Shown here one piece after another: positions 1,936-64,000 of a stretch of DNA of 64,000 nucleotides. The translations under genes and the position numbers were made by a program. This DNA comes from Folioceros fuciformis (lineage: Eukaryota): assembly GCA_049999805.1 (NCBI GenBank), contig JBNGIO010004204.1, positions 1 to 64,000 on the forward strand, in the 5' to 3' direction. How positions within the stretch are numbered: the stretch's first letter is position 1; each line of letters opens with the position of its first letter. The notes beneath the pieces are model-generated. The model searched no databases, had not been told where the DNA came from, and was given only the letters and a program-made list of their open reading frames with translations.

Positions 1936-4900
1936 CTAAGACATGATTTGTAGGGCTTCCCTGGTTTTACCGAGAACGTTCAGGGCAGTGGCTGCGATGT
2001 GTTGGGACGTTAGGCCGGCCTCGGCGAACTGGTCCTTGGGAGCCCCGTGGTCGATGTAACGGTCAGGGAGGACAAGGGGTCTCCACTGCACAGGACAGAA
2101 ACAGGTGGGGGAACTGTTAGACAACTGGTTGCAACTTGCTGCTGAAGGATGCCGAAATAGCAAGACGAGAAGGATGTAGGACCTTGAGTTTCCCGTCAAG
2201 GAGGCCGTCGAGAGCCATGAACTGCACCACGTGGGAGCCGAATCCTCCTATGGAACCTTCTTCCACGGTGATGAGGACTTCGTGTTCTCGTGCAAGTTCT
2301 CTGATGAGTTCACGGTCCAGTGGCTTGCAGAACCTGGCATCGGCAACCGTGACCGAGATGCCGCACTGCACCAGCATTCTCTCTGCGGCAAGACAGTGCT
2401 GTACCATGGTTCCATATCCGAGAAGGGCAACTTGCGTTCCCTCCGCTAAGACTCTCCCCCTGCCGACCTGTGTGGAAAACGGAGCCTGAGTGGATGAGTA
2501 CGAGAGGGAGTGGGAAAAACGGTGAGGTTTAGGGTTTCGAGCTTAGGGTTTGGGGAGGGTTACCTCCAAGGGCACACCCTTGTTTCCGGGTGGGAGTTCC
2601 ACGCCGACGCCATTGCCTCGTGGGTATCGGAAACAGCTTGGACGGTCGTCGATGGCGGCAGCCGTGGCCACCATGTGGAACAGCTCGGCCTCGTTCGAGG
2701 GCGCCATGACCACCATGTTGGGGAGGCAGGCCATGTAAGTCACATCAAAAGATCCAGCATGGGTGGGGCCATCCGCTCCCACAAGCCCAGCTCTGTCCAT
2801 GGCAAACCGGACAGGGAGCTTCTGGAGGTCGACGTCATGGATCACCTGGAAGCATAGCACGAGAGCCGAGATGAGACGGGATGTTCCATACAGAACACAC
2901 TGGTACCAGTGCGTGAAGTCAGGGTTGTACGTACCTGATCATACGCTCGTTGCAGGAAGGAGGAGTAAATTGCACAGAAAGGTTTCAAGCCCTCACAGGC
3001 AAGTCCTGCGGCAAAAGTGACGCCATGCTGCTCGGCTATACCGACGTCGAAACAACGCTCCGGGAATCTCTTGTGAAACATGTTGAGGCCCGTGCCACCA
3101 CCCATGGCAGCGTGGATTGCCACGATGTTCTTATCCACTTCGGCCTCGGCAATGAGAGCCTCGGCGAAGTAGGTGGTGTAGGCTTGCGTCAAGGTCTTCC
3201 CCTTAAACTGCCTGCCTGTTGCCGGGTCGAATTTGACCACACCTGAGAAGGATGAAATGGAAATGCAGCTGCTGGTTAGGTCCGGCCTGGATAAGAGGCA
3301 TAGTTCAGGTAGGCTGACGGCATGACTTGAGGCCGAGCTTACCGTGATACTTGTCTGCAGCCCGTTCGGCATATGGGTAGCCTCTGCCCTTCTCCGTGAC
3401 CAGATGAATCAACACAGGCCCTACTGTGTGTGTGGACTTGACTTCTCGAAGAATCGTGATGAGATCCTGTATGTTGTGCCCATCCACTGGACCGATGTAG
3501 TACAGCCCTAGCTCCTCGAACAAAGTAGACCCGGACCCGCTGATCATCCCACGAGCATACTCGTCAACCTTGGCTGCGAGCTCGTGCATGGGTCCTCCCA
3601 GCTGCTTGGTCACACCCTGCGAGCAACAACGGAGGAAAGGTCAACCCACCACATCCCTGAAGCTCGTCCCTCCCACTCAGATGCCACCAAGTCCTCTTCC
3701 TACCTTGGCGACTTCTCGAAGCTCCCGAAGCGGCCTGCTGGACTGCAGCTTGCTGAGGGCACTGCTGAGAGCCCCCACCGGCGGGGCAGGCCCGTCCAAG
3801 GTGGCTGTGGGAAGGGACACCTGCTTGTTGTCATTCAAGATGACGATCATATTGGAGTCCAAGTAGCCCGCGTTGTTCATTGCCTCGTACGCCTGGCCGG
3901 CCGTCATGGCCCCATCCCCGATAACCGCAATCACATGGTTCCTCTTCCCCTTGAGATCTCGACCGACGGCCATGCCTGCAGCCCATGCTCGCATCAGTCA
4001 GCACCATCACACCTCGACTACAGAGCATGAAGAGCAACACGAAGGGCAGTGAGATCCATTTAATTACCCAAGGCTGCGGATATGCTGGTAGAGCTGTGCC
4101 CTGCTCCGAACGCATCGTACTCGCTCTCCGCGCGCTTGGTGAAGCCGGACAAGCCACCCGTCTGCCGCAAAGTGTGCATCCGGTGCCTCCTCCCAGTGAG
4201 GATCTTGTGGGGATAGGCCTGCCATCACCATTCCAGCCATGAGACAAAGGTCGCAGGCTAGCTGGGACATACAATGCGCCCCTCCCCTCGCAACACCCAC
4301 CTGGTGACCCACGTCCCACAAAATCCTATCCTCCGGAGTGTTAAAAACATGGTGCAGAGCCACGGTGAGCTCCACCACGCCAAGACTGGACCCCAGATGA
4401 CCCCCGGTCCTGGACACGGTGAAGATAGTCTCGGAACGCAGTTCATCCGCCAGCTGCCTCAGCTCCTGCCACACAGCCCAGTCCACCACTTGTGAGCTCC
4501 AAACCCACAGAACTCCTCCCAAATCCACGGCAAAACCAATTCCAACGACGACGCACTCTGGGAGACAGATTCTTCATGTGTATCGGAAAATTGATGGTAT
4601 CCAGCAACGGAGTGGGCGGCTTCTCCGAAACATACTCTCCGCCGTCCGTGATGGCCGCAACAATCCACCCGCCCCGCTGCACCCACCACCACCCCAGTCA
4701 GAACCCACAATCCCCACCACGAGCTCCACCCGACCCACGCACACCCACCATGGACGCCCTCCTGGGAGCCGCACACCACGCGCATTTGAGCCAGGCGAGG
4801 CCATGCCCCAGCCCGGCGCTGTCCTTGCATGCAAGCGAAGAAAAGGCGAGCCGGAGCGAGCTCCCGGGCAACACCCGGGCGCGTGCCGCCTCGGGCTGCG

Positions 4901-4943
4901 GCAGGGCCACAGAGCGCGCTCCCGCGCCGGCAAGAGTCGCCAT
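1936..4943 (-). CDS. DXS: 1-deoxy-D-xylulose-5-phosphate synthase (MEP pathway), about 10 exons, with an Ala/Ser/Arg-rich putative plastid transit peptide
   Basis: Motifs '[19 protein letters not shown]', '[14 protein letters not shown]', 'WDVGHQ', TPP-binding '[16 protein letters not shown]', 'FDVGIAEQH' and '[15 protein letters not shown]'. Exons read by eye: 4943-4749, 4676-4557, 4465-4301, 4218-4068, 3975-3704, 3616-3343, 3242-2935, 2845-2564, 2467-2183, 2085-1936, all GT-AG. The first exon is the least certain. Confidence 0.96.
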
Positions 4944-6048
4944 TTCCGCCTCACAACGCAGCGCGCAGCTCCGCCAAGGGCTTCATGCACCCAGCCAGGC
5001 CTTGGCCTGGGCCTGGGCGATGGCGATGGCAATGCGCCGGTGGCCGTGCGCGCCCGGTGGCTGGGCGCCACCAGTCACGGGTCTCGCACTGGCTCAGCAC
5101 CAGCAGAGCGTCCCGCACAGCCACAAGGACTGTGGCACCGCAAAGGACGAAGAAGCAGGGACTGAGAACTCGGGAGCCGCCCCGTCTGCACCTTTGGGCG
5201 CGGCCGGCGGTAGGCCGAAACGAATCGCCGGTCCTCGGGCAGGACAGGATTCCTGAACTTGAGCTTAATCGCAGTTGCAGCGGACACAGCGGACTTCTTC
5301 ATTTGCCCTGGCTCCCGTCCGGTCCACCATTATCCCTGGGGCCTACGCCTCTGCTCCTCATTGGCTCCCCTGCCCTACGCCACCGCCGTCCCCAACCCAT
5401 GGCGTGCCTGCCCGCCGCCCCCCCCTGAAATTCACGACCCGTCCTCACCCCGATTGAAGCCAAGCCTTGCCTCGCCTTGCCTTGCCTTGTCTCGCCGTGC
5501 CGTGCAATTTCAGGCACCGGTCTTATACCTCGTCTCCAATCCCAACCCCCCATACCCACCAAAAGGGGCCTTCTTCTGGCCATCTCACCACCACACCATC
5601 ATCCTACGTACATACGCCCCTATACTGCACTAACTAAAAGTTCAAGGAACGAGCTGCCATAAAAAAAGATCACCTCAAACAATGTTCCTCACTATCTTTG
5701 GGAGGACGTTAATAATCATTTTTATAAAGATTTATATAGTAAGTTTATATTTTAAGCTTTAAGTATATATATAAGTTTAAAATTATCCTTTATATATATG
5801 TCTTAAACCAGATGATGGAAAGAAATCAATCTACTGAAGGACAACCAAAGGAGGAATACAAGAACGTAATGGGAAGGAGCAAATGGTTTTGCTAACATAC
5901 GGTAAAATGACATGCCCTGTTTAGTAGGCCTGGACAACCCATACGGATTGGGACTCACATATTTCGCTCTCACTAGAGTGTACACTGTAATAATATGTGC
6001 ACGAACATCACAACTTCACAACCTCGAGAGGAATAATATTGGACGTAG

Positions 6049-7275: not shown

Positions 7276-10191
7276 TAAAGGAAATGGGAAGAAAAAAAAA
7301 AAGGAGCTGAAAGGCTCAACTCCCCAAGAAATGGTGTCGATGCCAATATCTCCATTGCAAGCAAACCAATGCCTCTAAACAAGATTGGATGAAATGTTTC
7401 TTGCCTTGCAAAATCCTGGCGTGGCACTCAAAAGTACCACAGCCCATTATATCAGCAAAAACCTGCACGATCCTATTGCCGATGCTTCTCAAACTTGCTA
7501 GAAATGTCAAAGAGGGTGCTGTCTGCAGAAGGTATCCTGACATGCACAAAACACAAGAAAAACAGTTATAAGTCCCCTAAATCTTATGTAAATGCATACT
7601 TTATTATGAGCTAACACTCATATTCCATGAACCATGCAAGGCAAGGCATCCTTGCATTGCATAGGTGTACTCGTATGTTCAACCTATAGTTGTTCCTTAT
7701 TACAGGTTTTATTTTAATTCCTCGCTTCTTGGGACGGCATGTCATCTATGTAGTTTTCTCTTTTCCTTGGTCCTGTCCAGCATGATGTTGTGTTGTCGAG
7801 AAGTCCCCTTCCGAACTCTAATTGGCAACTCGGAGTTCGGTTTCCTGGAGCTACGACTGCAGCCAATTTTTATGCTTTTAAGATCCCTCATGGTGAGTAT
7901 CCAACTAGTTGCGATTGATTTTCTGGGTGTGACTGGAAGCCTGGGCCGGTCTGCCACCTACTTCATGGGGCATGGTCAGGGAGTGGGCCTGGAACGACTT
8001 TGCTGCGGCTGTTGCTGTGCTCGGGGGTTGGGCAGTCTCATCCAAGCTCTCTGCTTCAGCGCTGGTTCAGAGTCTAGCTGAAGTGCTATTTTCTTTTGCA
8101 CGGTATCTGTGCACTTGTGGAATGGAAGAAACCCTTGTTAAAACAGGCCGTCCCGGATTTCTGAGGAGACCACGCTTTCCCTGCCCCATTTCTGACAGTA
8201 GCTGCAAGAACTACATGGACTTGGGGTTCATATCCATGACGGATGTCAAGATGGTTCTTTGTAATGGCCTCGACGAATCGACTTCTTCAAGGCTCTCCTT
8301 GGACAATGTGATATCTCTCCGTGCACGAGGAGTGGGGTGGTGGTGCCCCCACCCCTTCTTTCGTGTAGTCTCTCACTCATGGCTGGAGGAGGTGGCCTAG
8401 GTTCCTTAATGTTCCCTATGCTTTGTTGTTCTTGATTACCGTTTCCAAGTCCAGGACCTTGCAAACTTTCTTATGCTGGTGTTGGGTGTTTCGGGGGCCC
8501 TACAGGCTCTGCCTACCTGGTGCTGTTCCTAGTTCCCTCTCAGACTTATTTTCGTTCTGTTCATCCCACGTCTCAGACGACATTGTAATCTCCCATTATG
8601 AATCTTGTCCATTCATCGGCAAAAGAAATGTACCCTGAGCTGTACATGAAACGTTCCCTGACTTAGATGCCAGTTTGACAACAATAAGCTCGGCCTGGAA
8701 ATCCCCTCAGAAAGCTGGAAGGATCACAGTGGAAGCGAAGTTGAGAGCCTTTGCCGGGCGTTCTCGTGCTCACAAAGCGGTGTCATATGGGTGTTTGCGC
8801 ATCCCATTTTGTGTCAACCAGTTCGACTCAGGAGGGGATGATGGGTAGGTAGTGTGATCGATGCTCACGGTTGTTACAACTCTTCAATTACGTCTGATGC
8901 AGTCATCCGCGACGTTTCTTCCTGTCAACGAGACGTGGACGAGGATGCAATGCGACTACGACTCCTGAGGCAAATTGCACATTTCCGGGTCTCTTTCTTG
9001 CAAGTAGGCACGCCACCTCCGGGGACAAGTATCCGAAGCTGCAAAGAAAGCTGCAAATTATTAACGCAGATGACAGCATCAGTGTAATTGAGGAGCGTTA
9101 ATGTTGTCTCGTTAATCCTATTGGCCTTTCTCGACTCGTGACCTAGGCTCAACGCAGAATACCAACGCAGCACCATTTCTTACCTGTCGGGCTATCCTTG
9201 CTGTGAGCTTGCCTCAGATGTCGACAAGCAGCACTTGCCACACTTGCATTGGCGTATGCAGAGACTCAAGAAGCTGCGGCATGAGTTCTCGAGGCTAACG
9301 GAGGGTGCGAACCCTAGCTCTGCAGAATCACAGTAAACGAAGGCACGGCTAGATCCTGAGCAGAGAGCTGAATCCACCATCAAGAAGAGGTGCTCAGATT
9401 AGAGGCAAACAACTGAAAACCTGGAGCCATCATCAGAGACATGACGACGATGCCGCGCGTACATGCAAGATAAAAAGTGAAATGGATTCATTTTCAACCA
9501 GAAGCTGCGACACATGGGAAAGGGTGACGACTTGTCTTGTCCGGTACTCCGAGGTGTCAAGACAGTCCGTTTCTTATTTCAATTTGTAGGTTTGGTAGAG
9601 CGGTAGGTGGTCAATTCGTGATCAAAAACAATTGCAAAGAAAGCATTTGAGCGTGGTGCAGGAGGCAGGTGTTCTCTGTTGGCATTTTGCAGACACAAAG
9701 CCACCGATCTTGACCGACATGTACAGCCTCTGGAGTAAACTGGATGCTCGGCATCGGCGGCCAGTAGGAGCCGAGGAAAATCCGCATTGCAGCCAACCCA
9801 AGTTGAAGAGGTTTTGTTTACACGAAGTGAAGGAAGCCGCTCGCCCATGTGATCCCCATTGACCCATCCTGGCAAATGGAAATAGCCCACCCAGATTTTT
9901 CTCACTTATGACTAGCTACTTTACAAGTGTTCCTGCAATGTTTGCTGTGAGCACCGTCTCGTTCGTCAGGCAGGAAGAACGGAAGCCCAGACCAGCGTGC
10001 GGTGAGTGATCAATGAAATGCGTCTGCCATGGTTCATGCTTTCCATGGATTGCTTGCTACCTTGCTTGCAAACCAGTGGGCGAAATTTGGGGGGTTTGAC
10101 AGGCAGGCTTGGCTTGGCTTCTCGCTTCCTTGCTTGGGGACCTGGGATGACTGTTGTGTGGTTTCTCTGGCAGGCTAGCTAGGCTTGCGCG

Positions 10192-13100
10192 ATGCAGAGC
10201 CTGGCAGGAGCGGGCGTTTTGCCGTGCGCCGGGCATGGCACTGTGGGAGAGAAGCCCAGTGGCTGCAAGCCGCAGCCGATGGGACGGAGCGGGGGGGTGC
10301 GGCTTCCGTCGGAGATCAGAGGCGCCGGCCTGACGCACAGCAGGGTGCAGGCTCTGGAGGAGAAGACAACGCACAGGAGCCTTGTCAGCTTGCGAGCGGC
10401 CCAGACTGTCAGCAGAGGCGCCGATCTGGTGGGATCGTACTCGGAGCCGGTGCTCGAGTTACCCCGGGCTGATGTGGTGGAGCTCAAGGGCAAGGTGGTA
10501 CTGTCCAGAAAGAACCACGGTATTCTTGTGGACATTCCGGCGCTGCTGTGGGACAACTACGCCGAGCTCTTCCAGGGGCAGCGGATTGAGCTCCGTCTTG
10601 TCAGCTTGGATTTGGATCCAGGTGAGGAAATCGCTGTCCTTAGCCCTCCTTAGCAGCAGGCCATGACACCCTGTGCTGATTTGAGTTGTCATTCTGCTGG
10701 ATTTTGCCAATTTCTTCGCTTGGTGCAGACACGAACGGGCTGAAGCTGAGCTCTCCCACGACGGTGGAAGGCTGGGCTGTCCGAGAGCTCTTCCTGTCAG
10801 GGGACACCGAGTTCGATGTCACCTTCAAGGTGCCTGCGGATTTCGGCGAGCCCGGGGCCTTCCTGGTGCGCAACAACCATCCCCGGGAGTTCCTTATGGT
10901 GTCGCTGACAATTGAGAAGCCCACCGGGAGTGTCGTCAATTTCCGTGCCAACTCATGGGTGTACAATACCTCCAAATACACCTCCGACCGCGTCTTCTTC
11001 AGCAACAAGGTACGTGGAACCAAGTCCCCAAGGCCATCCATGATTCGAGGCGAGCACTGTTGTAGCAAAATCAAGCTGTGGGAAATTTTCAAGGTTTCTG
11101 ACACCTTCTCACTCTTTTCTTCTTGCAGACGTACCTGCCCAAAGACACTCCACAAGCCCTCCGAGCTTTCCGGGAACAGGAGTTGCGGACGCTGCAGGGA
11201 GATGGCACGGGAGAGCGGAGACACTGGGAGCGCGTCTACGATTTCGACGTCTACAACGATCTGGGAAATCCGGGCTGGACCTTCAATGGGAAGAGGCCCA
11301 CGCTGGGAGGGCCGGAGCAGCCTTATCCTCGCCGGATGCGGACGGGAAGGCCTCCTTCGTTTTTCGATCCCAAGGCAGAGAGCGTGGTGAACATGTTCAC
11401 GGGAGATTTCCTCACCTTCAAGGTAGGCCCTGACCCCCTGGGAAATCTCTACATTCCCCGGGACGAAAGGTATGACAGGACCAAGTACACGGCAGTGCTG
11501 CTGGGGAGCGTCTTGGGCATGGTGCACGGGATTTTTCCAGTTGTGCGCAGCCTCTTCTCCGGCAAGCCCAACGAGTACAAAAGCCTGTCCGAGGTGCGCG
11601 CCATGTACGAGGACAAGTTTGAGGACGGAGGCAAGAGCTGGTTCAAGTATCCTCTACCTCAAGTTGCTGCCGGTGCGCATCAACCTTCCCTTCCGTTCCC
11701 TGTTTGTGCATGCTTGGAAGAATTCCTAACGCTCGCCATTCTTTCTTTCAATTGCACTTGGCTTGCTCTCTTCTCATCTGATTCAACTGTAAATGAGATG
11801 TTGCAGCTGACGATCTGGCATGCCTGGACGACGAAGAGTTTGCTCGACAGGCTGTGGCAGGCTTCAGCCCCATGGTTGTGGAGAGAGTGACAGTACGTGC
11901 GCTATTCTTGACGTCCCGTGTGGTTGTCACCGTTGCTGGTGTGATGACTTTTTGTCATTGGTGGCACGGAAGTGTGAGGCACACAAAGGGAGTCGTATGG
12001 TGCTAACAAAAGTGGCCCGTGACAGGAGTACCCGCCGCGAGGCCGGACCGGGCTTACCACCGAGCACATTCAGCCCTACCTGGAGGGGTTGGGCGTGGAG
12101 GAAGCCATCGCAAGCAAGCGGTTGTTCAAGGTGGACTCCCACGACCTCTACTACCCCTTCATCGAGCGGATCAACGCTCAGAAGAATCGCAAGGGGTACG
12201 CACCTCGCTCCATCCTGTTCCTGAACGGCGAAGGGAAGCTGACGCCGGTGGCCATCGAGCTGGACTCGGGGAAGGCGATCCAGGTGCTGACACCTCCGAG
12301 GGCGAAGGACGGGGAAGCGAAGGCGGCAAAGGACTGGCGCTGGGAGTTGGCCAAGCTCCATGCTAGCCAGATGGACTTCGCTTACCACGAGCTGGTGACG
12401 CACTGGCTGCAAACGCACGCGTCCGTGGAGCCTTTCATCATCGCGTCGCACCGGCAACTGAGCGCGCTGCACCCAATCAAGACCTTGCTGCAGCCGCATC
12501 TCATCAACACGCTGTCGGCCAACATGTCCGGGCGGCAAGTTCTCGTGAGCGCGGGCGGTTATATTGAGCTCTTCTTCGTCACCGGGCCTGTGACGATGGA
12601 GGTGAGCCAGGCGGCGTACCCAGCCTGGCGCTTCGACCAGCAGGCGCTCCCGGAGGACCTGGTGGCGCGTGGCATGGCGGAGCGCACCCCGGATGGTGGG
12701 GTACGCTTGGTGCTGGAAGACTACCCCTACGCTAAGGACGGGCTGGAGCACTGGTCGGCCCTGCAGGCCTGGGTGGAGCGGGTGGTCGGCTTGGCCTACT
12801 CCAGCGACGAGCAAGTGGTCGCCGATCAGGAGGTGCAGGCCTGGTACCGCGACATCCGGGAGCGCGGGCACGGCGATCACAAGGACCAGCCATGGTGGCC
12901 TCGGCTGGACGGCCGCGAGGGCCTCATCCGGGTCCTCACCATCATCCTCTGGATCACCAGCGTCCGCCACGCCGCCGTGCACTACGGCCAGTTTCCCTAC
13001 GCAGGCTACGTCCTCAACCGTCCGGGCTTCCTGCGCCGCCTGATCCCGGAGCCTGGCACGCCAGAGGATGCGGAGCTGCAAGCCGATCCAGAGAAGTTCG

Positions 13101-13417
13101 TGCTCTCCACTCTGGCTTCCCCGTTCAAGAACTTCGCGGTGGTGACGGGGGCCGAGACGCTCTCCATCCACCCGACCAACGAGGAGTACATTGGCACGCG
13201 GAACCAGGACAATTGGACCTCCGACCCCGAGCTGCTGGAAGCCTTCCGCCTCTGGGGCGAGGATCTGCGGCGAATCGAGCGCAATATCGAGGATCGAAAT
13301 GCCGACCCCTCTCTGCACCACAGGACTGGCCCCGCCCGCATGCCCTACACCCTGCTTTATCCCTCGTCTGGCCCGGGCGTCACCGGCAGAGGCGTGCCCT
13401 ACAGTTTGTGTGCGTAG
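10192..13417 (+). CDS. LOX: Plant-type lipoxygenase (PLAT plus catalytic domain), 5 exons, 910 aa, with a possible N-terminal transit peptide and atypical active-site residues
   Basis: Exons 10192-10621, 10729-11009, 11129-11672, 11807-11892 and 12026-13417 total 2733 nt and stay in frame. Motifs include 'FGEPGAFLVRNNHPREF', 'RVYDFDVYNDLGNP', 'PYPRRMRTGR', 'DEEFARQ', 'HELVTHWLQTH', 'HRQLSALHPI' and 'PYTLLYPSSGPGVTGRGVP'. Confidence 0.95.
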
Positions 13418-15717
13418 GCCATAGCCAAGCCTGTCCTTGTTTGGAAAGACGCATTGGGTGCTCTACTACTTTTTGTGCCGCTCTCTGGGAGTAACTATGT
13501 ACAGCATGCAGAGCCTGCGGTTGTGACAACCTGCAGAGCTGGCGTCGTTGATGATGCAAGTATTGCAGGCTCTGATCCGAACTGCGACTGTCCGTGTTTT
13601 TAGCCTCATGTACGTATTTGTAATACAGTAGCTGGCCAGCTGTGCATGTCTGCGATTTCCACTTCACAAGAAAGCAACAGGTTAAAGACTTTGTTTTTCG
13701 TTCATATGCGCTGATTGAGCCTTCAAATACGCTGCCTTGGTGCGCAGAGACGGAAATTTCGGTGCCCCTCCAAATCCGGCCAGGATAGATGCCTTAGTCG
13801 TGCCCAGCTTGAGAGCCAATCCAAACGACAAGAATCCAAACGGCAAACGAGATACACAATTCAAATCGGTGACAGGCGTATGGGCCATGGAGCCGTGGAC
13901 GGAGTGTAGAGGTGGGTGTTGTTGCGGAGAGTTTCGGAGCTGCGCAGTTGCAGAGGCTTGCGATAGAATAAGCCCGCGTCCTCGCTCGTGTCTTCGTGGC
14001 AGCGGTGACCGTCCGCCCGGCTCCGGGCTTCTAGATCTGATGTTACATTGCTGATGAATGAATGGCATTGACGAGTAGCTTTATTCACGAGACTTGAGCT
14101 CTTGTTGGCTTGTTGTGGTACTGAAGGCGAGCTTGAATTCTGCTGAGCGACGCTGCGCGCCTTCAGTTTCTGGAAAGCTGGCTGGCCAGCGCCAACATAG
14201 CCGCCAACTACTGTGAGCAGACTCTGCCTGAGGAGAGCGTCCCAGACGTGACTTGAAGGCTGCTGGTCGGCCGCGGACGCCTCCAGGCTTGCCAGCAGCA
14301 TTTCCACCCCGCGCTCAAGCGAAGAGGCTCTAAACAGCTTTGTGCAGGCCCATTTTCTCCTTCGATCTCCGTGCCAAGTAGGATGAAGCGTTGTGGTTTG
14401 CTTGCATTTCTTTTAATTAGAAACCTTAAAGATTGTCTGAGAATCATCGTTTTATTTGTGTTCTACGAACCTTCCGGACCATCGCCTCCATCGCCTAGGT
14501 AGTTTTTAGGTTCATGGCATCTAAAGCTTTGAGGTTGAAGACGGTCACCTTTAGTGGATTCTGGCACCTCTTAGGTATAGATGAAAACTAGGAGTGCCGG
14601 ATTTAAGAGTGCATTCACAGGTTCTAGGAACTAGGTCTTCCAATTAGTTTTTCTCCATTTAAAATATATAAAACTTTATTTAAAAATATGTAGGGTTTAG
14701 AGTAGAATATATTATGAATATTATAGATTTATATTATTCATATTTTGAATTATAGATTCTACAAAAAAAATCTTGGCTTTCTTGGAATCTTTGAAATCCT
14801 ACTTCTACAAGCCTTACATAAGTTCTGAAGCCATCCCTTTCCCAAAAGGCTTACTTTAACACTAAAGGAATGTGAGGCGTAAGTAGAAGAAGCCTAACTA
14901 TATAAAACGCTAGACGCAAGCAAAATATCCTCAATTTGAAACATCATGGACATCACAGTCCAGAAGGAAAAAGGATGGAGGCGTAAAGAAGAAGTGCGGG
15001 TAATGAAGGAAATGTGGGCAATATAATTTAGGAGTTTTGAAAATCATGGTACAATGAGCCAACGTCTCACTAGCCCTAAGTCGCTAACCGATCGAACAAA
15101 AGTACACGCATTCTATAGACATCAGTGCCCACAATATGTTGATTGGATGTGGAAGTAAACGCGTCCACGATTTGTACATGGACGGAAAGACACTTGCCGA
15201 TCCTTAGCCAACAGTAAAGACCACCCGAATAGGTCCTAATAACTCGCGTAAGGAGTCCACACAACCAAGGCGAGGGTAAGTTGAAGGATGATAACACGTT
15301 GGCCACGCTAACGTAGCATCACCGTGTTGATGAAAGCGAAGGCACATCCAACTCCTAGTCCCACTACATTTACTCTCTTCTAGCTCAAACGGACCAGGCA
15401 ACAAGCGATCCAGAGCAATGTGATGAAAGCAGGCCGACAGTACTATGTAACAGGGTACAGCCAAAACGGTATGAAACAAGGCAGGCAGGCAAGTTCATTT
15501 GGCGGGACAGGAGTTTAGGCCAACAACTTCGATGAGTTTACTCATTCGAAGCTATGTCAGGCAGGTGTGGGAAAACCAGGAGGAGGATTGCAACCCAGTG
15601 CCATGAGGCTTGCCACGACGCGACTGCGATTAGTCACATACACCCCACCCCAGGCTTGCCTTTTTCTTTTTTTTACCTTTCCACGGGAAGAGCCCATCTT
15701 CCCCATGAAGTCATGCA

Positions 15718-18700
15718 TCACAGCTCCGACAGAATGGCTGGGATATAATGAGACAACTCCGCAGTGAGTGACTGAAATCCATTCACCAGTTGAGAGTGAA
15801 AGTCTTGATCTTCTTCCCCAATCATCCTAGCATGGACGCGAATGGCACGTTTACACACACCCATGAACTCCAATAATGCCTGAATCAGCTGCTGCAGTTC
15901 TTGAGACCGTAATCTCAAAGATGGCTCGTCAGACAGAAACGCTGTACATACACCCAGCACCCCACTATTCACCTGGACCACATTAAACATGAGTCTATTA
16001 GCCAGCCAACCACACTCAAGATATACAATATCCTGTTCTCCAGAACAAGGAGACAAGATCCTTACCTGAACTGCTACACTCCCTTGCAAAATCCGCTGGA
16101 GGCTCTGTAACCGAGGCAGCTGATCACCTTCCGCACTCCTTGGTTCATCCAGTTCGCCCACCAGTGCAGCAGTCCTTGTTTCAATCATCCCAATTGCATT
16201 CTCGATCGGTGAAAACTCTCGGGATTCTGATTTCGTAACGATGAGTCTATTGACAAGTGCAGGAAAAGACCCCTCTGTTTGCACGACGGTCCTCCTTTTC
16301 CACTGGTCTTCCAATCCACCCTGCGTTCGCCCGTTCTTCGTGAAAGGAGTGTCAAACAGGAAGCGGTCGAATACACGAGCACTCACATGTCCTGTGATTT
16401 GTCCCGAAAGCCGCTCCCTTCGACTCTCCAGGTCTTCATTTTCTGTCACTGGGTCCACCGAGGTAATCTGTAGATAACAGACCCCAGGCTGGAGCTCCTC
16501 GGCATTAACCTGTCGGGAGTCTGGAATAATGTGTAATGTCAAATCACTATCTAACCTAGATTCATATATGTGTCCTAGCTTCTCCATTATATCCCCAAGT
16601 CGTACATCACGAGCCTCCCTATATACATACTCCTTGCGGTTCAGCTTACCAAATCGCTCTCCATAGAAGCCTACTCTATAGTAAGTGGCATCAATAAATG
16701 GGATGGGGCTCGACTCCTGGTCAAGGATCGACTCATAAATGCTGGTGAGAGAAGTATGGCATTTAGATAGCTGCCCATACGCATGCCGACTCTTGTGAAC
16801 TGGAATGATCAGCTCCAATATACCAGCGCAGAAGTGAAACAGCTCAGCTTGGACAAACAGCTTGTTTGCTAATTGCAAGTACTTCACAGCAGAATCTACA
16901 GTCAACTTTGAAGCACCATAACCTTCCACCTCTGCTGCAGCTGCCTCCGATGTAATTTGATCACTGAGCATGGGACATATTCGCCGAAGAGCCTCTACAT
17001 GCTCCTTTCCCCATACAGCATCTTTACGCCCCACCAGTGCCTGAGAAAAAAACATGTGCCGACGTCAAAACCCTTGTCACTGAGGATGACAGCAACATTT
17101 TAGTCAAGCTAGGATACAATTGAACAACCTGCATAATAACGCCTGCAACAGCAACAGCACACTGAGCTGCTTCAGCCCATGACTGCATTTCCTGATGAGC
17201 ATCACAAAGGTGAAGGAGCCACATAATGTGAAGATCAGGAACATGCGCATATGCCCATGCCAAACTGTGGTAGCTCTCAGCTGTAGCGTACTTATCAATG
17301 GCCATCATCGGTCCCTGCAATTCCATGACGATGTGTGATCAAGGAGGTGCACAGTGAAAAGTGAAATCGAAACACGGCTGAAAACAATCATGAGCATCTC
17401 CAGAAGTAGGCACCAGAAGGGCATGCTCCACAGCCGCCTCTAAAGCTTTTTTCAGAGTTTCAGATAGCTCGACAACTTCAGACCACCGCCACCTGTTGTC
17501 CAGAGCACCATCTGGCCCAGTCTCTAAGGTATTCTCGCTCAGACCACATTCTTTCAAAACTTCTTGGCTGATGTCCTTCTGAGCCATTTCCTGCAAGGAC
17601 TTTCGGAGTCGACGTGCCTCACCACTTTCCTCCAGACTACCATCAGATCTCATTTGGGTTACTTGTACATCAGACATAAGCTCCGATAACGTGATACTCA
17701 GCATCACCCGCAACCTCACTGTGTGCTTGAAAAAGTAAAAGGAATTCTGCAGACCAATCAGAGCCAACCCTGTACGAACATTAGCTCACTATACAATTAC
17801 AGGACTGCATGGAGGCTTTTCACGGCAGAGATCAGCAATGTAAGGCATATCCACAATTGACTTACCCTAACAAGAATCTGAAGCCCTACCACTGCCCTCC
17901 TGCGAATAGATTCATTTCGGAACACAGCCAATCGCAATAAGTGAAAAGCAATTTGTTTCAGAAAACGATCATTTTCGTGACCCATAAGTATTGCTCCATG
18001 ACGACTGAGGAGATTGTGAAATACTGGAACGAATGCCTTCCAGAACACCAGAGGCTGACTACGACTCAGAAAGCCGGTGAAAAGTGCTGTGATACAGTCC
18101 AGCTTGTCAAAATCCGTCAAAATACTCTGAGATGATGCCGCATCAGTGAACTTCTCCGCGACCTCTAAAACCTGAAGGCTAACAGATGCACTGAGATTCT
18201 CCTCCCAGAGTTCCTACAGCAAAACATACGCACTTCGCTCAATGACATTCATGCAGGATATTTTATGTAGCTGTGGAGACAAGAATATTTCAAAAAGGAA
18301 GCAAAGGAAACTGCTGACAGTTCATCTCATCAGGCAAAGTTCACCCCACAGTTCACATGTCCAAGAGCATACCAGCTTCTGCCGATGAACTGGGTGTAGG
18401 CTCTCACGAAGGGCCCTGTTGGCAGGACCTCGTCTCGAAGACTGAGCTTGAGCTAATGCTTCACGAAGGGAATATGGCTGGTTTGGAGAGGACATATGTG
18501 GGCTCATTTTCTTCCACACTAGTCCAGTTTCAGGAGTTGACTGAGGCTGCATCCACTGGTCAGGGAATTGTCAGTTAGCTACGTAGGAAAAATTATCATT
18601 CGTGAGACCACCTACGCAGAGGACGAATAAGAAATACACACCCTGACTTCTAGACGTGCAGCCTCTGAAAAATATGCATGTATTGCTGGAGATAAAATCT

Positions 18701-21700: not shown

Positions 21701-24700
21701 TGAGAATGGCAGGCAGCTGCACTTTAAACTCATCATGAAATTGTGCAGTTCGAGTGTTCACAGCAATCTGTGAATGGGCACTCCTCTGCATGGCTATACC
21801 ATTACCACTCCTGGAATAGAAGGCCTGCATCAATACAATATCGATTTTAGCAGCGGGCAATCCAGAATGACAAAACAGAATAGCAGACAGACAAAGCAAC
21901 AGATGATCCTCATCCATACAAGAAGGGGAGGCTTCTTCAGATCAGCATCATCTTTTCGTAGCTCCACACGTATGAACAGATTGCGCTTTTTGCTCAAGTG
22001 CACGGAGAGGGGATAGACGAACAAGCAATGCACAAGCTGAGTGAGCGGCTCATTCTTTGTGAGCACTCGAAATTCCAGCGCTGCAAACTGCAGAGACATT
22101 TAACAGCAATAAGCATGTGTTGCCAGAAGTAAGAAAGCCACAATGATCGATCAGGGCACTAGGAATGCAGGTGCATCTGCAAAGATAAACCTACATCAGC
22201 TCCTGCAGTATCATGCATCATTTGGGTGGTGTCAGGTTCCACCCGATCAACTTCTGTTTGTTGCCCTCCATTTTGACTTTTCCGTCCAGATCCATGCCTT
22301 ACTCGCCTTCCTGAGCCGATTTCCGACAGTCTGTCCTCCCCCTCAACAGACCCATTGCTGGACAATGTATCCATGTCAGGCTCCTCAATTGGAAGGCGTT
22401 CCACTTCGATAGTCAGCGTGCCCTTCACATGTTTGTGAACTTTGCGTTTTGGGTCCTTCAGAGATTAGAAGGACAGTGTCAACCTTAAGAACCCAATAAC
22501 CGTTAAGCTAAGGTCTGCATCACATCCATATTGGTGGACACTTGACACTACTTTGCAAGTTCTCAAGTATGGGCAGCATAACAGCTAAATCAAGTTGACA
22601 AAACTTCAGGCCTTGAACTACCTGAAGTGATTCTTCAGTGTAGCACTCCTTAACCCGGTTCATTGCTGATACTTCCACTATGGCAGAGGAATAGAGAGAA
22701 GCATTCTTGTTGGCAGATAGAGATCTTGCATCAAGATCCAAAGCAGAGTCAACCAGCCCTGAAATTCCTCCTCCAGGAGATGGAAGTGGACTGCTTGGCG
22801 AGTTGAAACCACCAATGATAGTTGAACTAGGGTCAAACAAGGGAATAAACGTCCAAGCAAAAGGTTCTCGGTACGGCATGATTCTCGCCCATACTTGCAG
22901 TTTCTGTTTTTCTCGTTCCATCAGATGCACCTGCAGACCATGGATGATGGTCATTGCTCCGATTCGTGGAACCCTATCATAAAAGAAAAGGCACCAGACG
23001 AGCCTGAAGCTCCATACACATTTCAAATGCATGCGACAAATCTACCAGACTTACAGGCTCCTTTCTAGAATATACTGAAGACGTTACTCCACCTTCCTCG
23101 GTGGCATGCTTTTCTAGCTGAATGAGAAAACATACTGAGGGTGATGGCATATCAAGTGTAAAAACTGCACGTCTTTCAGGTGGTGGCCCTTCCTGCCCCA
23201 AGTTCCAGGAAATAAGATTAACAAGGACGAACAAACAACAAAGCACCATGAAGAAAGAAGAACAACCAAGAAATTGAATCTCCTGCAGCTGAACTCACCT
23301 CCTGAAACTCATGAGGCAAGAACTGAAAGTAGAAGTCCTCTGATAATTTCTCCCGCTTCTCTCGATGATACAAGCTCAAGGTTCCATAGACCGGTTCAGC
23401 TTTACCACAAAACAGGAGGATGTCACTAAGAGTTGGTGAGTTGAGACCATGCCTGAAATTCCTAGCGGTTCTGAAAGAAGAGAAGGGAACACACCTAAGG
23501 GACCAGCCTGGAATTTTATACCCTTCAGTTTCACTGCCACTTTCAACGCACTGGGAACAAACCAATTCGTCAACAATAAGAACCCACATAAAACAATATT
23601 GGACCTCCATTTCTAATGGAAAGCAGGAAAGTGGGAAAGTTAAGCACGAACCTTGAGGATAAAGCTGAAGGAAGCTCGGGTATTCTCTGGCCAAACACTG
23701 TAGCTCTCTCAGACTCCCAGTTGTAGACAGGGTCATAGGCCGGAAGTGGAGACATGCCGAGATGCTGCATGACCACAAAGGCAAACACTTGAAGTTCGTA
23801 ATTGCAGCTAATGAACTATTGTCAAACGGTCAGATCTATCAAAAACCTGAAGGCACCTGCCCACAGACCTGACGACCATGATCCCCCCATTCTTTCCCTG
23901 GACAGAACCTTGCAAACTGAGGAGCAGTTCATGCCTGAAGATTTGCCAGGCTGCACGGTCTTGGTGATGCATCTCGTTACATGGAGAATGGGAGGCTCAA
24001 ATGAGTGCACTGCAGATCAACAACGTCCTTGTGTACAATTCTCAGCAGAAGAGCTTCCAGAGCTCAGGAGACGGGACTGGAGGTAGTCTAATTATTTGAA
24101 ACCCAGGGAGCCTTCAGAATGGCTGGGAATGGTGTATCGGCTCATAGGTCTTGGCCAATCCACATTTAGCGTCTTGACCCCGAATCAACCCCCAGGAATA
24201 AGTGACAATGTACAGCACTGCCCCCACATTTCTAATGGTTTATAGATGAAGCTCAGATGCGAGTTTAACTACGATGCCAACATTGAAGACGTTAGGGTTG
24301 CAAACAGGCACGAGAGGCTGTGAGGGGTGCTTTCATGTATCCAGCGGGTTTGAAATGAGAGAACATAAACCTTTGGCATCAATTTTCTGCGCCGGTGGTC
24401 AGCATCCCCATCATAGGAGTGCCTTCCAGATGTGCTCGGCTCCTCATCATCTGTGGTGTCTCCTGCCCTACCTAGCCTCAAATTTGAGAGTCGTTGCTCT
24501 GGACACGCTAACAGTGAAACGTCAGAAAGCTTCATTGGCCGAACAGCAACCCTGTTCCTTTGCTCCAGATAAACTTCGACCGACACAGCTAGACTCGAAG
24601 CACAGGATTCCGACGGCACAAAAGGAACCCATGATATTTCATCCAGAAGCTTACCCGTCTCAACGTCAGTATCAGGCCCCTCAAAAGTCTGAGTCTCGAA

Positions 24701-30202: not shown

Positions 30203-33200
30203 TCAAGTCCTGTAAGCTGCTCTGGAAGAAGCTTCAGCTGCAAGCTTCAGCGCTTCTGATGCGACACCTGCCTCAGCCACCAACGCTGCAGGGAGCCTGC
30301 CTTGTAGACACGGATTGATATTGAGAGGAGCCAGCCAGGACCCGTTGAAAATCAAGTTCACTCCAGGGAGCGGTACCTCCCCGCTGTCATCCTCCAGCCC
30401 ATTGGCCTTTTGCCCAGGAGTCGGCGGACTGTTATCCATGATTAGTCGTTGATTAGCTTCATAAACTGGGTACTGAGACTTTGACGACCTGCATCCATGA
30501 AAACCACAGACAGTCTTAGATGTTCCGATGCCGACAACGAAGCCCAACTGCATACTTGAAAGACGAGGCAGCGCTACAGACCTTGGAATATCTCCGTCGA
30601 AACTCATGACCTCGAACCGTCTACGCTGTCGGTCTGTGCGGCTGAGCTTGGACGACATAACAGGTGAGAGCGGGGTCGAGGGCTCCTCACTGGGTAAGAA
30701 CCATCTTCCACTACCGTGACTTGTCAGCTCCGATGCTCCTGTTGTGAGAAGTTTCTCAGAACCATATGTAATTCTTGGAACCACACCATTCGCTTGATGA
30801 TCTCCAATAAATTCTTGCAGCTGTTTTCTCAAAAGTAGCATCTGCTCACGGTGCCTCAACACGGATACAGGATGGAAGAGACGATGCTGAACGGCTGCTT
30901 CACAAACACGCTGACATAGAGCTGTGTCAAAAAGAGGGACACCAAACTCCACACCTTGTGGAACCCACACATAGTCACTATCATCTGCCTCGTTTACTGG
31001 ACCTTCATATCCTGGGGTAGATCTGCACATGCGCAAGAAGGTCATATATCCGACAGACTGAACATGCAGTTCGCCTGCTGCCTGCATGATGGAGGCATGT
31101 GGATAAAAGCTGTCCTTCGCCTTACTTTCTACCTCGGCCTGCTCATCCATTGGTAAAGCAACATCTTTTGTGACAATTCCCTCCTTGTCATCAAGGGAAT
31201 CACGGTGAAAGGGTTGCACGAAAACGGCCGAATGTCTCAGAAGAGAATTCAAACAGTGCAGCAAAATTCGACCATCCACCACAGTGCCGTCGAACTTCCC
31301 CCCTATTCCGTTCACTATTGTGCCATCCCATGACCATACCAGAGCCTTGGTGCAACCAGACAATGGAGGAGGAAGTAACCGCAGCCGAAGCCCCCTTATT
31401 AAAGCCACTGACACAGGTCCAGACCCAGCAACATGGTACAGAAGAAGGCGCATCCATGGACTTACAGCAGCACGAGAAGGGGGGCCAAAATGGACAGGAC
31501 CTTCGCCATCCGCTGACACAAAAGGTGGAGGAGACGTTAAAGGGGTCATTGATACCACAACACTGTAATCTCGGCGGAACACTCTTTGCAGTGTGGCAGG
31601 TGTGAGCCCAGCAAGGCTCTCACAACGGACCACATCCACACGATACTTCCTACCCTTCCGACTTCGTGGCTTACTCTGAAGAGCATTGTCACTCACAGTG
31701 GGGGAGCTTGCAACTTGAGTTCCATCGTCCATGTCCAGGATGCCCTCGCTCCTTGTCTTGGTACCATCTATATTGAGGACTCCATTCTGCCTGCTGATAG
31801 ATCCAGCCTGATCTCGTTGTCCATTCACTGTATGAGATTCAGCACTATCCACAACTCTCGAGGACATTCCCAGTAAGCTGTCAGAGGTCATGAACGAGCC
31901 AGAGGGCAACAAATCGACTGATTTTCTACCCAGTGAAGAGTTATCCAACAAAGACACTATGCTGAATTGCTCATCAGCTGAGGAAAGGCGCCTATCAGCA
32001 TCTGAAACATACTCCTTTGCTGCCAGCTCGGCGGAATCAACGATGTCCACTTCGGAGGAAGGATCAATCCCACCAGATCGAAGGCATTCTAGGGCAAGAC
32101 GTAGGCTAAACGCATGATCTGCAAATTGCTGTATCTCACCCTCAAATTTAGTGCCTTCTACTTTCCGTAGATCTTCACACATGTCCGCAACACTTGAATC
32201 TCCCAGCTTTCCAGCTTCATAAAGTGTAACAGCATATGCCTTCAGACCTGAGACAACAAGAAAAATGGAAGAAGACAGAGATATAGCACCCAAACCCACT
32301 GAGAGATGTAGGGCAGCAAATCATGCCACAAGGCCTGTGAACAAACCTGGTGATACAGACCCCATCATCAAATATGATGTGAGGCTAGCGTCCACCATAA
32401 AAGCCATTCTTGCTGATAATGGAGCTTTTGGTATTTCTCCAATGGAAGCATCTTGAGGCTCAGGTCCATCCCACAAAGAACTCACTCCTCGGGGACTCCC
32501 TAAGCTGAGAAAATCATCCCCGCTGCCATCACTGGTCGGAGAACCAGGTGAGCTCCGAAGTAGCTCCGTTGGGTCTAACACCTTCTTAGCCCAGCCCAAC
32601 CGGGCTGCCAATGATACAGCAGCCTCGAGCTGTGATTGGTTTGCCTGTAAAGTCGCACCCAGCTCAGCAATCGTGACATGCTCGCTGGAAGCCACAAAAA
32701 CAGCGTACAAGAGCCTGGGAAGCAGAGGATCCCAGCCATCAGATTATCTGGCAGCATTGCAAGATTGACACCCAACTTCCAAGAGAAGCAATTCAGGTCA
32801 AACACCTTTTAACCGAACAGGTATGCGCCAACCATGACTCACTCTTCTGTTGGATCTTCATATGATTGCTCTCTATTTGAAACAAAACCTTCCAAGGTAG
32901 AGACTGCACCAGGCAAAGTAATTCATCAGGCAGCTTAAAATCAGGTCAGGCTGGTTAGTACTGTCTTCAAGCAATGCTTGCACTGTATGGGCATGACTAG
33001 ACCTGTCCTCGGATGTGTATGGCATGCAATTAGCAGAGGTATGCGTGTGTGACTCATTTCAAATAACCTGTGAGGAGCAGCTCACCTTGAAAGTGATCAT
33101 CTGGGAAAACAGGCACGTCAAGATATACCAAGCCTCTCCGATAAAGGACACGCAATACATTTATGTCAAATTCTCCAACTAGATTGACTTCTTCATTGCA

Positions 33201-63163: not shown

Positions 63164-63790
63164 CTACACATTGGAGGCTGGAGCAGTGACTTGTGCAGTA
63201 GCGCTGTAGCGGACAGCCAGTTCGCCATACACTCCCTTGTCATCATCACCCTGCAAAAAGGTGTTCCTGGCATTCACCGTGAGCATGACAACCACAAGCC
63301 AGAAGAGGGTGGCATCCAGGGCCAGGAACGCCGCTGCTCCAAACAGGCCCGGCTTTGCTGTAGGGCAGGACGAGACCGAGGCATCCACGACATGAAACTT
63401 CCGACGAGCGGCTTCAGCTAACGTGGCCCATAGAAGCAGGCCCCCTGCAGTCAGGGACAGGGCAAAGGAAATCACAGAGAAAAACACGAGGCCTTTGCTC
63501 TTCAGTAGAGCGAGAACGGGAACGGACTTCTGGTCGTAGGGGTACACCAATGCCACCAATGAAATGATGAGGGACACCACCACAAAAATCAGGCCCGCCG
63601 TGCCTAAAGCAGGACTGCTGTCCTTGGGGTAGGAGCAAAATTGAAGGTTTCCAATCAACACCGGCGCAAGAGCACCCTCCGTCGGCTTTGCATTCTCCGC
63701 TATCACTCCAAGAATGAAAGCCGTTACTCCGGAGAACAAGATAGCGTTACTCAAAATCAAAACATCTGAGAACCGCTTCCTCAACGCCAT
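63164..63790 (-). CDS. DUF1218 plant membrane protein (about 4 TM helices), intronless, 208 aa
   Basis: Motifs 'AFILGVIAENAKP', 'CSYPKDSSPALG', 'YPYDQKSVP' and 'CPTAKPGLFGAAAFLALDATLFWLV.MLT.NAR'. The ATG at 63790 is preferred over the upstream non-ATG extension. Confidence 0.85.
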   Translation of the reverse strand: MALRKRFSDVLILSNAILFSGVTAFILGVIAENAKPTEGALAPVLIGNLQFCSYPKDSSPALGTAGLIFVVVSLIISLVALVYPYDQKSVPVLALLKSKGLVFFSVISFALSLTAGGLLLWATLAEAARRKFHVVDASVSSCPTAKPGLFGAAAFLALDATLFWLVVVMLTVNARNTFLQGDDDKGVYGELAVRYSATAQVTAPASNV

Positions 63791-64000
63791 CGCGACTCGT
63801 GCTCCTGCTCCTACTCCCGCTCCTCCTCCGCCACAAGCAGTGAAACCCCTGCTCACAGCAGATCGAAGCCTCCTTGAGAGCTATGGTCGTCGGGTATTCC
63901 GCCCGCTACCCCGATCGTCCGGTCCCGGTCAAGCAAGAAAGCCGGAACACGGTAAGACGGCCGCCTTCCGTGTTCACACGGCTCCCAACAATATTGAACC

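Follow-up and report, generated by a model that had tools for sequence, protein, structure and literature searches.

The window, a 64,000-nt stretch of Folioceros fuciformis DNA, carries on its plus strand a lipoxygenase (LOX) gene of five exons (10192-13417), hereafter the query, which translates into 910 aa with zero internal stops. Exon 1 (10192..10621) contains the start codon, an N-terminal extension of ~95 aa and the onset of the PLAT barrel, exon 2 (10729..11009) encodes the PLAT/LH2 domain (PF01477, E 8.8e-11), and exon 3 (11129..11672) holds the onset of the lipoxygenase domain (PF00305, E 6.2e-38). Exon 4 (11807..11892) is placed by translation and splice joints, and the intronless exon 5 (12026..13417) encodes 463 aa comprising the catalytic core up to the stop codon, matching PF00305 at E 3.4e-166 and soybean LOX-1 at E 6e-131 (phmmer). 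This order, a PLAT/LH2 barrel followed by the lipoxygenase catalytic domain, is the architecture of plant-type LOXs. Exon 5 as modelled by AlphaFold (pLDDT 92.8, from a 67-row alignment) superposes on soybean LOX-1 with a TM score of 0.94 and an rmsd of 1.8, a confirmation at the level of the fold only. The neighbouring genes, all on the minus strand, include a lipase-3-like ORF (467-1693), a DXS-like gene (about 1936-5074, named from its translated exons and transketolase domain), a DOCK-type (DHR-2) GEF (15718-17064), FAM91 (30203-32320) and DUF1218 (63164-63880). Of the 26 ORFs in the window that reach 170 aa, a size range that excludes short exons, 21 were scanned and revealed no oxylipin gene cluster.

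Splicing of the gene is directly visible in sequencing run X3, whose contig 9 (2932 bases) spans 10223-13647 with 0 differing letters and lacks all four introns, each removed at its predicted GT..AG boundaries, including the joints of exons 2, 3 and 4. The contig begins 31 bases past the ATG and includes the stop codon. X3 is not recorded as RNA, yet it contains a spliced contig, and its RNA label is a guess; it belongs to study P2, which is separate from P1, the study possibly behind the assembly. Runs X1 and X2 are also concordant with the gene, but may derive from the same sample as the assembly. The last exon (12026-13417) lacks three introns found in all three paralogs, and the genomic ORF of the ortholog (P0121) also reads through one of these sites, so at least part of the 3' intron loss is common to both genes. 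X3 additionally contains a low-depth LOX contig of 3022 bases (record 12, at 12440-12474). Its loose end fits none of the intact loci among the four LOX genes, and the contig represents either a paralog missing from the assembly or carry-over from a different sample.

The ~95-aa N-terminal leader is probably a plastid transit peptide, judging from its pattern of divergence. In P0242, the full-length member of the ortholog cluster, only 15 of 56 residues of the N-terminal portion are identical to the query, compared with 579 of 807 in the remainder. The ortholog in run X4, from organism B, extends over 10179-13417 and differs from the query at 235 letters. Of the 221 rows of differences, 40 are listed for this comparison (39 of them in exon 1), and among these, third positions make up 12 of the 29 exon 1 differences in codons 1-95, as against 9 of 10 within codons 96-143 (p 0.011, Fisher test), a contrast that points to a fast-evolving leader followed by a constrained PLAT domain. 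Organism B also alters the second ATG, at 10279, which is a weak point favouring the first ATG.

The initial annotation had drawn attention to positions 12521-12577, which lie in frame in exon 5 and translate as it gave them, and had proposed that a Gly at the stereo-determining Coffa site predicts an R-specific LOX. Gly616, encoded by GGG at 12530-12532 (+), falls on soybean LOX-1 Ala542 in a phmmer alignment that is gapless from His494 to Pro559, and L620 falls on Leu546, so that the invariant Leu shield is retained beside the Coffa-site Gly. Y626 corresponds to Ile552, and F630/F631 (12572-12577) to the positional determinants Thr556/Phe557 (together 12560..12577, +), in agreement with the FF motif originally read there. 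A misregister of the Gly was ruled out by the gapless alignment, the structural match, and the coral 8R-LOX Gly, which falls in the same motif register in an alignment to P0378, not to the query itself. An assembly error at this codon, a concern raised at the outset, was likewise ruled out by the X3 contig from a separate study; contig 6 of X2 also spans the codon with 0 differences, and the codon is genuine.

Ala was presented in the initial annotation as canonical among plant LOXs, which holds as a majority but not as a rule: of 113 full-length homologs (120 listed proteins minus 7 of ≥1150 aa), 103 have Ala at the Coffa site, 6 have Ser and 4 have Gly. In a wider survey of 427 sequences, Gly occurs in 27 of 361 readable rows, a count that includes near-duplicates (6 Apiaceae, 5 Selaginella and 2 Nothoceros rows) and at least one misaligned row (P0368). 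Eight Gly tips are scattered with nine state changes across a 31-row tree whose rows were enriched for Gly by choice; each Gly tip with a resolved sister pairs with an Ala sister, and the eudicot Gly-bearing 9-LOXs form a clade apart from the query. Uniqueness of Gly among plant LOXs was ruled out by these counts and by apple LOX1:Md:1a, and uniqueness of FF by its presence in P0036, P0260, P0284, P0416 and P0423. In four of the six resolved Gly/Ala pairs (Selaginella, L011, Hibiscus and Nothoceros), the Gly member has a branch ~2x as long as its partner, a lengthening absent from the Daucus and query pairs. Hornwort-like LOXs seem to have acquired Gly on several occasions: a LOX of Nothoceros aenigmaticus (P0157/P0243) combines it with Met538, AT at 556/557 and a Pro-Cys-Val terminus, on a branch that differs from both Gly genes of F. 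fuciformis. Three Malvaceae LOXs (P0160, P0198 and P0238) carry the Coffa-site Gly together with Met in place of Gln697.

The F. fuciformis genome (87 Mb) contains at least four intact LOX loci and at least three fragments, with Gly in two of the intact genes. The Coffa site is Ala in paralogs L009 and L010, which carry TF at 556/557; in the 31-row tree, L009 pairs with a Nothoceros protein (87/86), and L010 and L011 sit in the 13-LOX clade (98/95). L011 (G000:C6099, ~24312-24611), on a long branch beside the canonical L010, combines the Coffa-site Gly with Met538, CV at positions 556/557 and Val as its last residue, and by analogy with the apple enzyme would be a 13R candidate. Among the fragments L043 (G000:C6191), L044 (C6415) and L045 (C4002), the first two are interrupted by stops or changes of frame, and L043 looks like a decayed L010 copy. 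An allene oxide cyclase was found in the genome; together with this enzyme, the two canonical Ala/TF paralogs could supply OPDA, which could free the query for another task. The genome also encodes an intron-containing LCIB gene (L012/L013, G000:C1919), which among land plants is reported for hornworts only (PMC8075897). This lineage marker, the placement of the genome's LOXs among those of land plants and the L009-Nothoceros pairing make a hornwort origin likely.

Beyond the Coffa site, the substrate pocket is extensively altered. The six-residue clamp described in PMC5437038 consists, in soybean numbering, of Trp500, Ile538, Ala542, Leu546, Val750 and Leu754. In the cyanobacterial CspLOX2, replacing Ile with Ala at 538, which faces the 9S side, gives more 9S product, replacing Ala with Gly at 542 gives more 9R, and a smaller residue at 750, which faces the 13S side, gives more 13S (PMC5437038). 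The query's clamp reads W-A-G-L-G-L, with A612 at Ile538 (12518..12520, +) and, in gapless alignment, G822 at Val750 and L826 at Leu754 (13148..13162, +); the Val750 register was checked via PDB 7SOJ (V750A). Ala at 538 occurs in 2 of 359 homologs, both belonging to the ortholog cluster, Gly at 750 in 5 of 371, and Tyr at Ile552 in 5 of 362, two of which are misaligned. Summed from standard residue volumes, the query's clamp adds up to 770, compared with a median of 956.5, below all 287 sequences with six readable sites, and that of P0242 (798.5) is the second lowest of the same 287. Because three of the four O2-facing sides are opened at once, Gly616 alone is not readable as "R-specific". The Gly and Leu shield of R-LOXs are present (G616, L620), whereas their clamp pattern of Ile/Val at 538 and Ile, Thr or Leu at 750, which is taken from the four R-LOXs in Table 1 of PMC5437038 and is no formal definition, is broken by A612 and G822. 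Since Ile552 and Val750 influence one another, and Leu546 as well, in soybean LOX-1 (PMC10013837), Tyr626 and Gly822 may form a compensating pair in which Tyr626 refills space. Bulky residues at 556/557 over Arg707 are associated with tail-first binding in LiLOX (PMC6587457). The remodelled pocket proposed initially is thereby borne out and goes further than was first seen, extending beyond Thr556Phe to Ile538Ala, Val750Gly and Ile552Tyr.

The metal site is also unusual. By alignment, E569, H573, the clamp residue W574 and H578 (12389..12418, +) correspond to Gln495, His499, Trp500 and His504, and H762, H766 and Q769 (12968..12991, +) to His690, the ligand Asn694 and Gln697. The protein ends in Cys-Ala before the stop codon (13409..13417, +; translation and X3 contig), placing Ala910 at the position of the carboxylate ligand Ile839. 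His at 694 (2 of 394 homologs) and a terminal Ala (2 of 343) are each confined to the ortholog cluster, and the combination of four His with a C-terminal Ala at the carboxylate position was found in no surveyed sequence beyond the query and its ortholog; the other non-Ile termini among the 343 are Val (11), Met (7) and Thr (5). Glu at Gln495 is unremarkable (57 of 333). The three fixed His, Gln697, Arg707, Leu546 and Leu754 are all kept. PMC13059375 describes the LOX ligands as three fixed His plus His, Asn or Ser, a pattern to which H573, H578, H762 and H766 conform, together with a C-terminal carboxylate that is usually Ile and occasionally Val. The terminal Ala falls outside this Ile/Val set, which leaves the predicted binding of iron uncertain. 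In rabbit ALOX15, catalysis proceeds with a four-His sphere (PMC11593649), and N694H is reported to reduce soybean LOX activity (PMC12058684).

The only close relatives found were P0121 and the full-length cluster member P0242, both Logan records. P0242 is sister to the query with 100/100 support in the 31-row tree and is identical at 594 of 863 residues (69%; 31% diverged). The two proteins share A538, Y552, FF, H694, G750 and the terminal Cys-Ala, and P0242 is identical to the query at the other five clamp sites and at all ligands, but carries Ala at the Coffa site, which rules out Gly as a defining feature of the clade. The conserved signature of the clade is thus, at the level of aligned residues, its metal site and pocket, with Gly as the variable part, and the remodelled site common to the query and its Ala ortholog is a better lead than the Gly. 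Ala predominates in most of the surrounding clade, which favours a gain of Gly in the query lineage rather than a loss in P0242, with one ortholog readable at this site. No further ortholog emerged from metagenome scans; a short-protein search gave 2 matches among 31 candidates, neither of them an ortholog, and a representative protein library contained none above 52% identity among the matches listed. The query clusters with liverwort LOXs and a Nothoceros LOX (94/98 in the 31-row tree, 99 in another tree), and together with its ortholog it probably represents a divergent, hornwort-derived clade within the bryophyte LOX group. A literature search on hornwort LOXs, R-specific bryophyte LOXs and N694H-type or C-terminal ligand variants, which covered few subscription papers and is a weak indication for that reason, gave no description of this clade.

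The reading we favour, held tentatively, is that the query encodes an active, probably plastid-targeted iron LOX of a divergent bryophyte clade, whose product would be a mixture that includes 9R, not clean R. The bulky floor, with F630/F631 over R779, would admit the fatty acid methyl end first, as in 13-LOXs. Iron held by His573, His578, His762, His766 and the C-terminal Ala carboxylate would abstract the n-8 hydrogen, and Gly616 would admit O2 to the carboxyl-side carbon, giving the 9R-hydroperoxide from 18:2/18:3 or the 11R-hydroperoxide from 20:4. Because Ala612 and Gly822 would open the 9S- and 13S-facing sides too, a mixture with a substantial R share is expected, and turnover would probably be slow, owing to the His-for-Asn ligand. 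The Gly would be a lineage-level change atop an older remodelled site that is run with Ala in the ortholog. The CspLOX2 clamp rules derive from cyanobacterial single mutants, and their effects may not be additive in a plant LOX. Some R product, whether within a mixture or as the main product, appears fairly probable. The proposed R specificity is retained in part: the Gly and a tail-first pocket predict some 9R, as in soybean Ala542Gly, but a clean R enzyme is doubtful in view of the Ala ortholog, of an apple Ala enzyme that makes 13R, and of Ile538Ala and Val750Gly, which favour 9S and 13S in CspLOX2.

That the query is a clean R-specific LOX, making 9R products from C18 and 11R from C20 substrates and opening a dedicated non-jasmonate oxylipin route as the initial annotation suggested, is unlikely. 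Gly616 and the Leu620 shield stand in the same register as in coral 8R-LOX, the Ala/Gly rule is described as general with few exceptions (PMC13059375), and hornworts contain arachidonic acid (PMC6052662). However, Gly is absent from the ortholog, iron R-LOXs keep Ile at 538 and Ile/Thr at 750 where the query has Ala and Gly (PMC5437038), both plant Gly precedents (the soybean mutant and the apple enzyme) are reported to yield mixtures, and the scanned ORFs include zero oxylipin genes. Somewhat less likely still is an S-specific or Gly-indifferent LOX, in which the outcome would be set by the enlarged pocket and by a substrate that is bulky or esterified, Gly616 would be tolerated and the ortholog would perform the same reaction. 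Such indifference would suit the ortholog, which has Ala but matches the query at every ligand and at the remaining five clamp sites, the comings and goings of Gly in the Gly-enriched 31-row tree, and Gly822, which is expected to favour 13S (PMC5437038), but Ala/Gly swaps altered specificity in soybean LOX, apple LOX and CspLOX2 according to the published accounts. Comparably improbable is an enzyme that mainly processes hydroperoxides, an isomerase or lyase whose retuned iron site (His766, Glu569 and terminal Ala) would act on the paralogs' products to give epoxy alcohols, ketones or C6/C8 volatiles. The ligand changes are common only to the ortholog cluster, and LOX-fold isomerases or lyases have precedents in eLOX3 and a Mn-LOX Gly-to-Ala mutant (PMC13319228), in MpLOX7 (PMC13364333) and in the red-algal PhLOX (PMC11507377); isomerase activity is, however, tied to restricted O2 access (PMC13319228), which Gly616 and the small clamp should widen. 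A dead or nearly dead LOX-like protein retained for lipid binding or storage is very improbable, for although two of the five ligands depart from the plant canon and soybean LOX is less active with N694H (PMC12058684), the three fixed His, Gln697, Arg707, Leu546 and Leu754 are all retained, the unusual residues are conserved in a 31%-diverged ortholog, and the gene is intact and spliced.

A more far-reaching proposal, to which we give little weight, is that the query and its ortholog form a new LOX subfamily, probably of hornworts, with a rebuilt metal site and the most open clamp in the survey, which would convert bulky or C20 lipids or hydroperoxides into oxylipins undescribed in land plants; the orthologs' Gly/Ala difference would then act as a natural S-to-R switch from one species to the other. 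A 2026 review calls the hornwort biosynthesis of jasmonates and oxylipins almost unstudied (PMC13364333). The query unites changes that have been engineered singly, namely Ala542Gly, Asn694His, Gln495Glu and a smaller residue at Val750 in soybean LOX and Ile to Ala in CspLOX2, and together with its Ala ortholog it offers a natural pair for questions of additivity in steric shielding and of iron ligation by a terminal Ala. If the prediction is true, a plant producer of 9R or 11R hydroperoxides would have value as a biocatalyst. The Gly alone is no surprise: it is known in plant LOXs, and in the surveyed sequences the pocket and iron-ligand changes are the rarer feature.

Compared with known LOXs, the query resembles soybean LOX-1, a 13S enzyme, in its PLAT domain and LOX fold, the three fixed His, Trp500, Leu546, Phe557, Arg707 and Leu754, with an aligned core that is 44% identical, but it has an N-terminal extension and naturally bears both soybean mutant residues, Ala542Gly and Asn694His, as well as Ile538Ala, Ile552Tyr, Thr556Phe, Val750Gly, Gln495Glu and a C-terminal Ala. 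The soybean Ala542Gly mutant forms 9R and 13S products and is not purely R (PMC13059375). Apple LOX1:Md:1a, like the query a plant-type LOX with a Coffa-site Gly, excludes the notion of a first natural plant R-LOX: with its natural Gly567 it makes ~77% 13R-HPODE, is dual-specific (13:9 = 8:1; 13R/9S), and becomes a 9S enzyme upon Gly567Ala exchange (PMC4595979). Its positional motif is the TV of 9-LOXs, in which Gly turns 9S into 13R, and its ligands include Asn and Ile, whereas the query has FF, from which the predicted R product is 9R. Apple LOX2:Md:2a carries Ala and yet makes a 13R product (PMC4595979), so the Ala/Gly rule has plant exceptions. By its sequence, the query is neither a jasmonate-type 13S-LOX (type II), given Gly616 and its position in the bryophyte clade outside the seed-plant/fern 13-LOX clade, nor a plant 9S-LOX, with FF rather than TV at 556/557. 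Fungal manganese LOXs have a C-terminal Val, Phe at the Leu754 position and no barrel domain (PMC13059375, PMC5437038), whereas the query has a terminal Ala, L826 and a PLAT domain.

Liverwort LOXs (Marchantia, Riccia and Calypogeia) share a clade with the query and frequently have Glu at Gln495, and the Nothoceros LOX of this clade also has Gly at the Coffa site, but none of the liverwort or Nothoceros LOXs has His694, Ala538, Gly750 or a terminal Ala. The characterised MpLOX1-3 are reported as 15S/11S enzymes (PMC13364333). Coral 8R-LOX and CspLOX1 (9R) have, like the query, Gly at the switch and a Leu shield one turn on; unlike the query, both retain Ile at 538 and have either Thr or Ile at position 750, and coral 8R-LOX also retains the Asn ligand and terminal Ile. 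Mammalian ALOX15 shares a fourth His four residues past the third (rabbit His541/His545; PMC11593649), but has a terminal Ile and Ala at the switch and is S-specific (PMC5437038). As ALOX15 is a distant homolog, its four-His likeness to the query, with its His766, would represent convergence.
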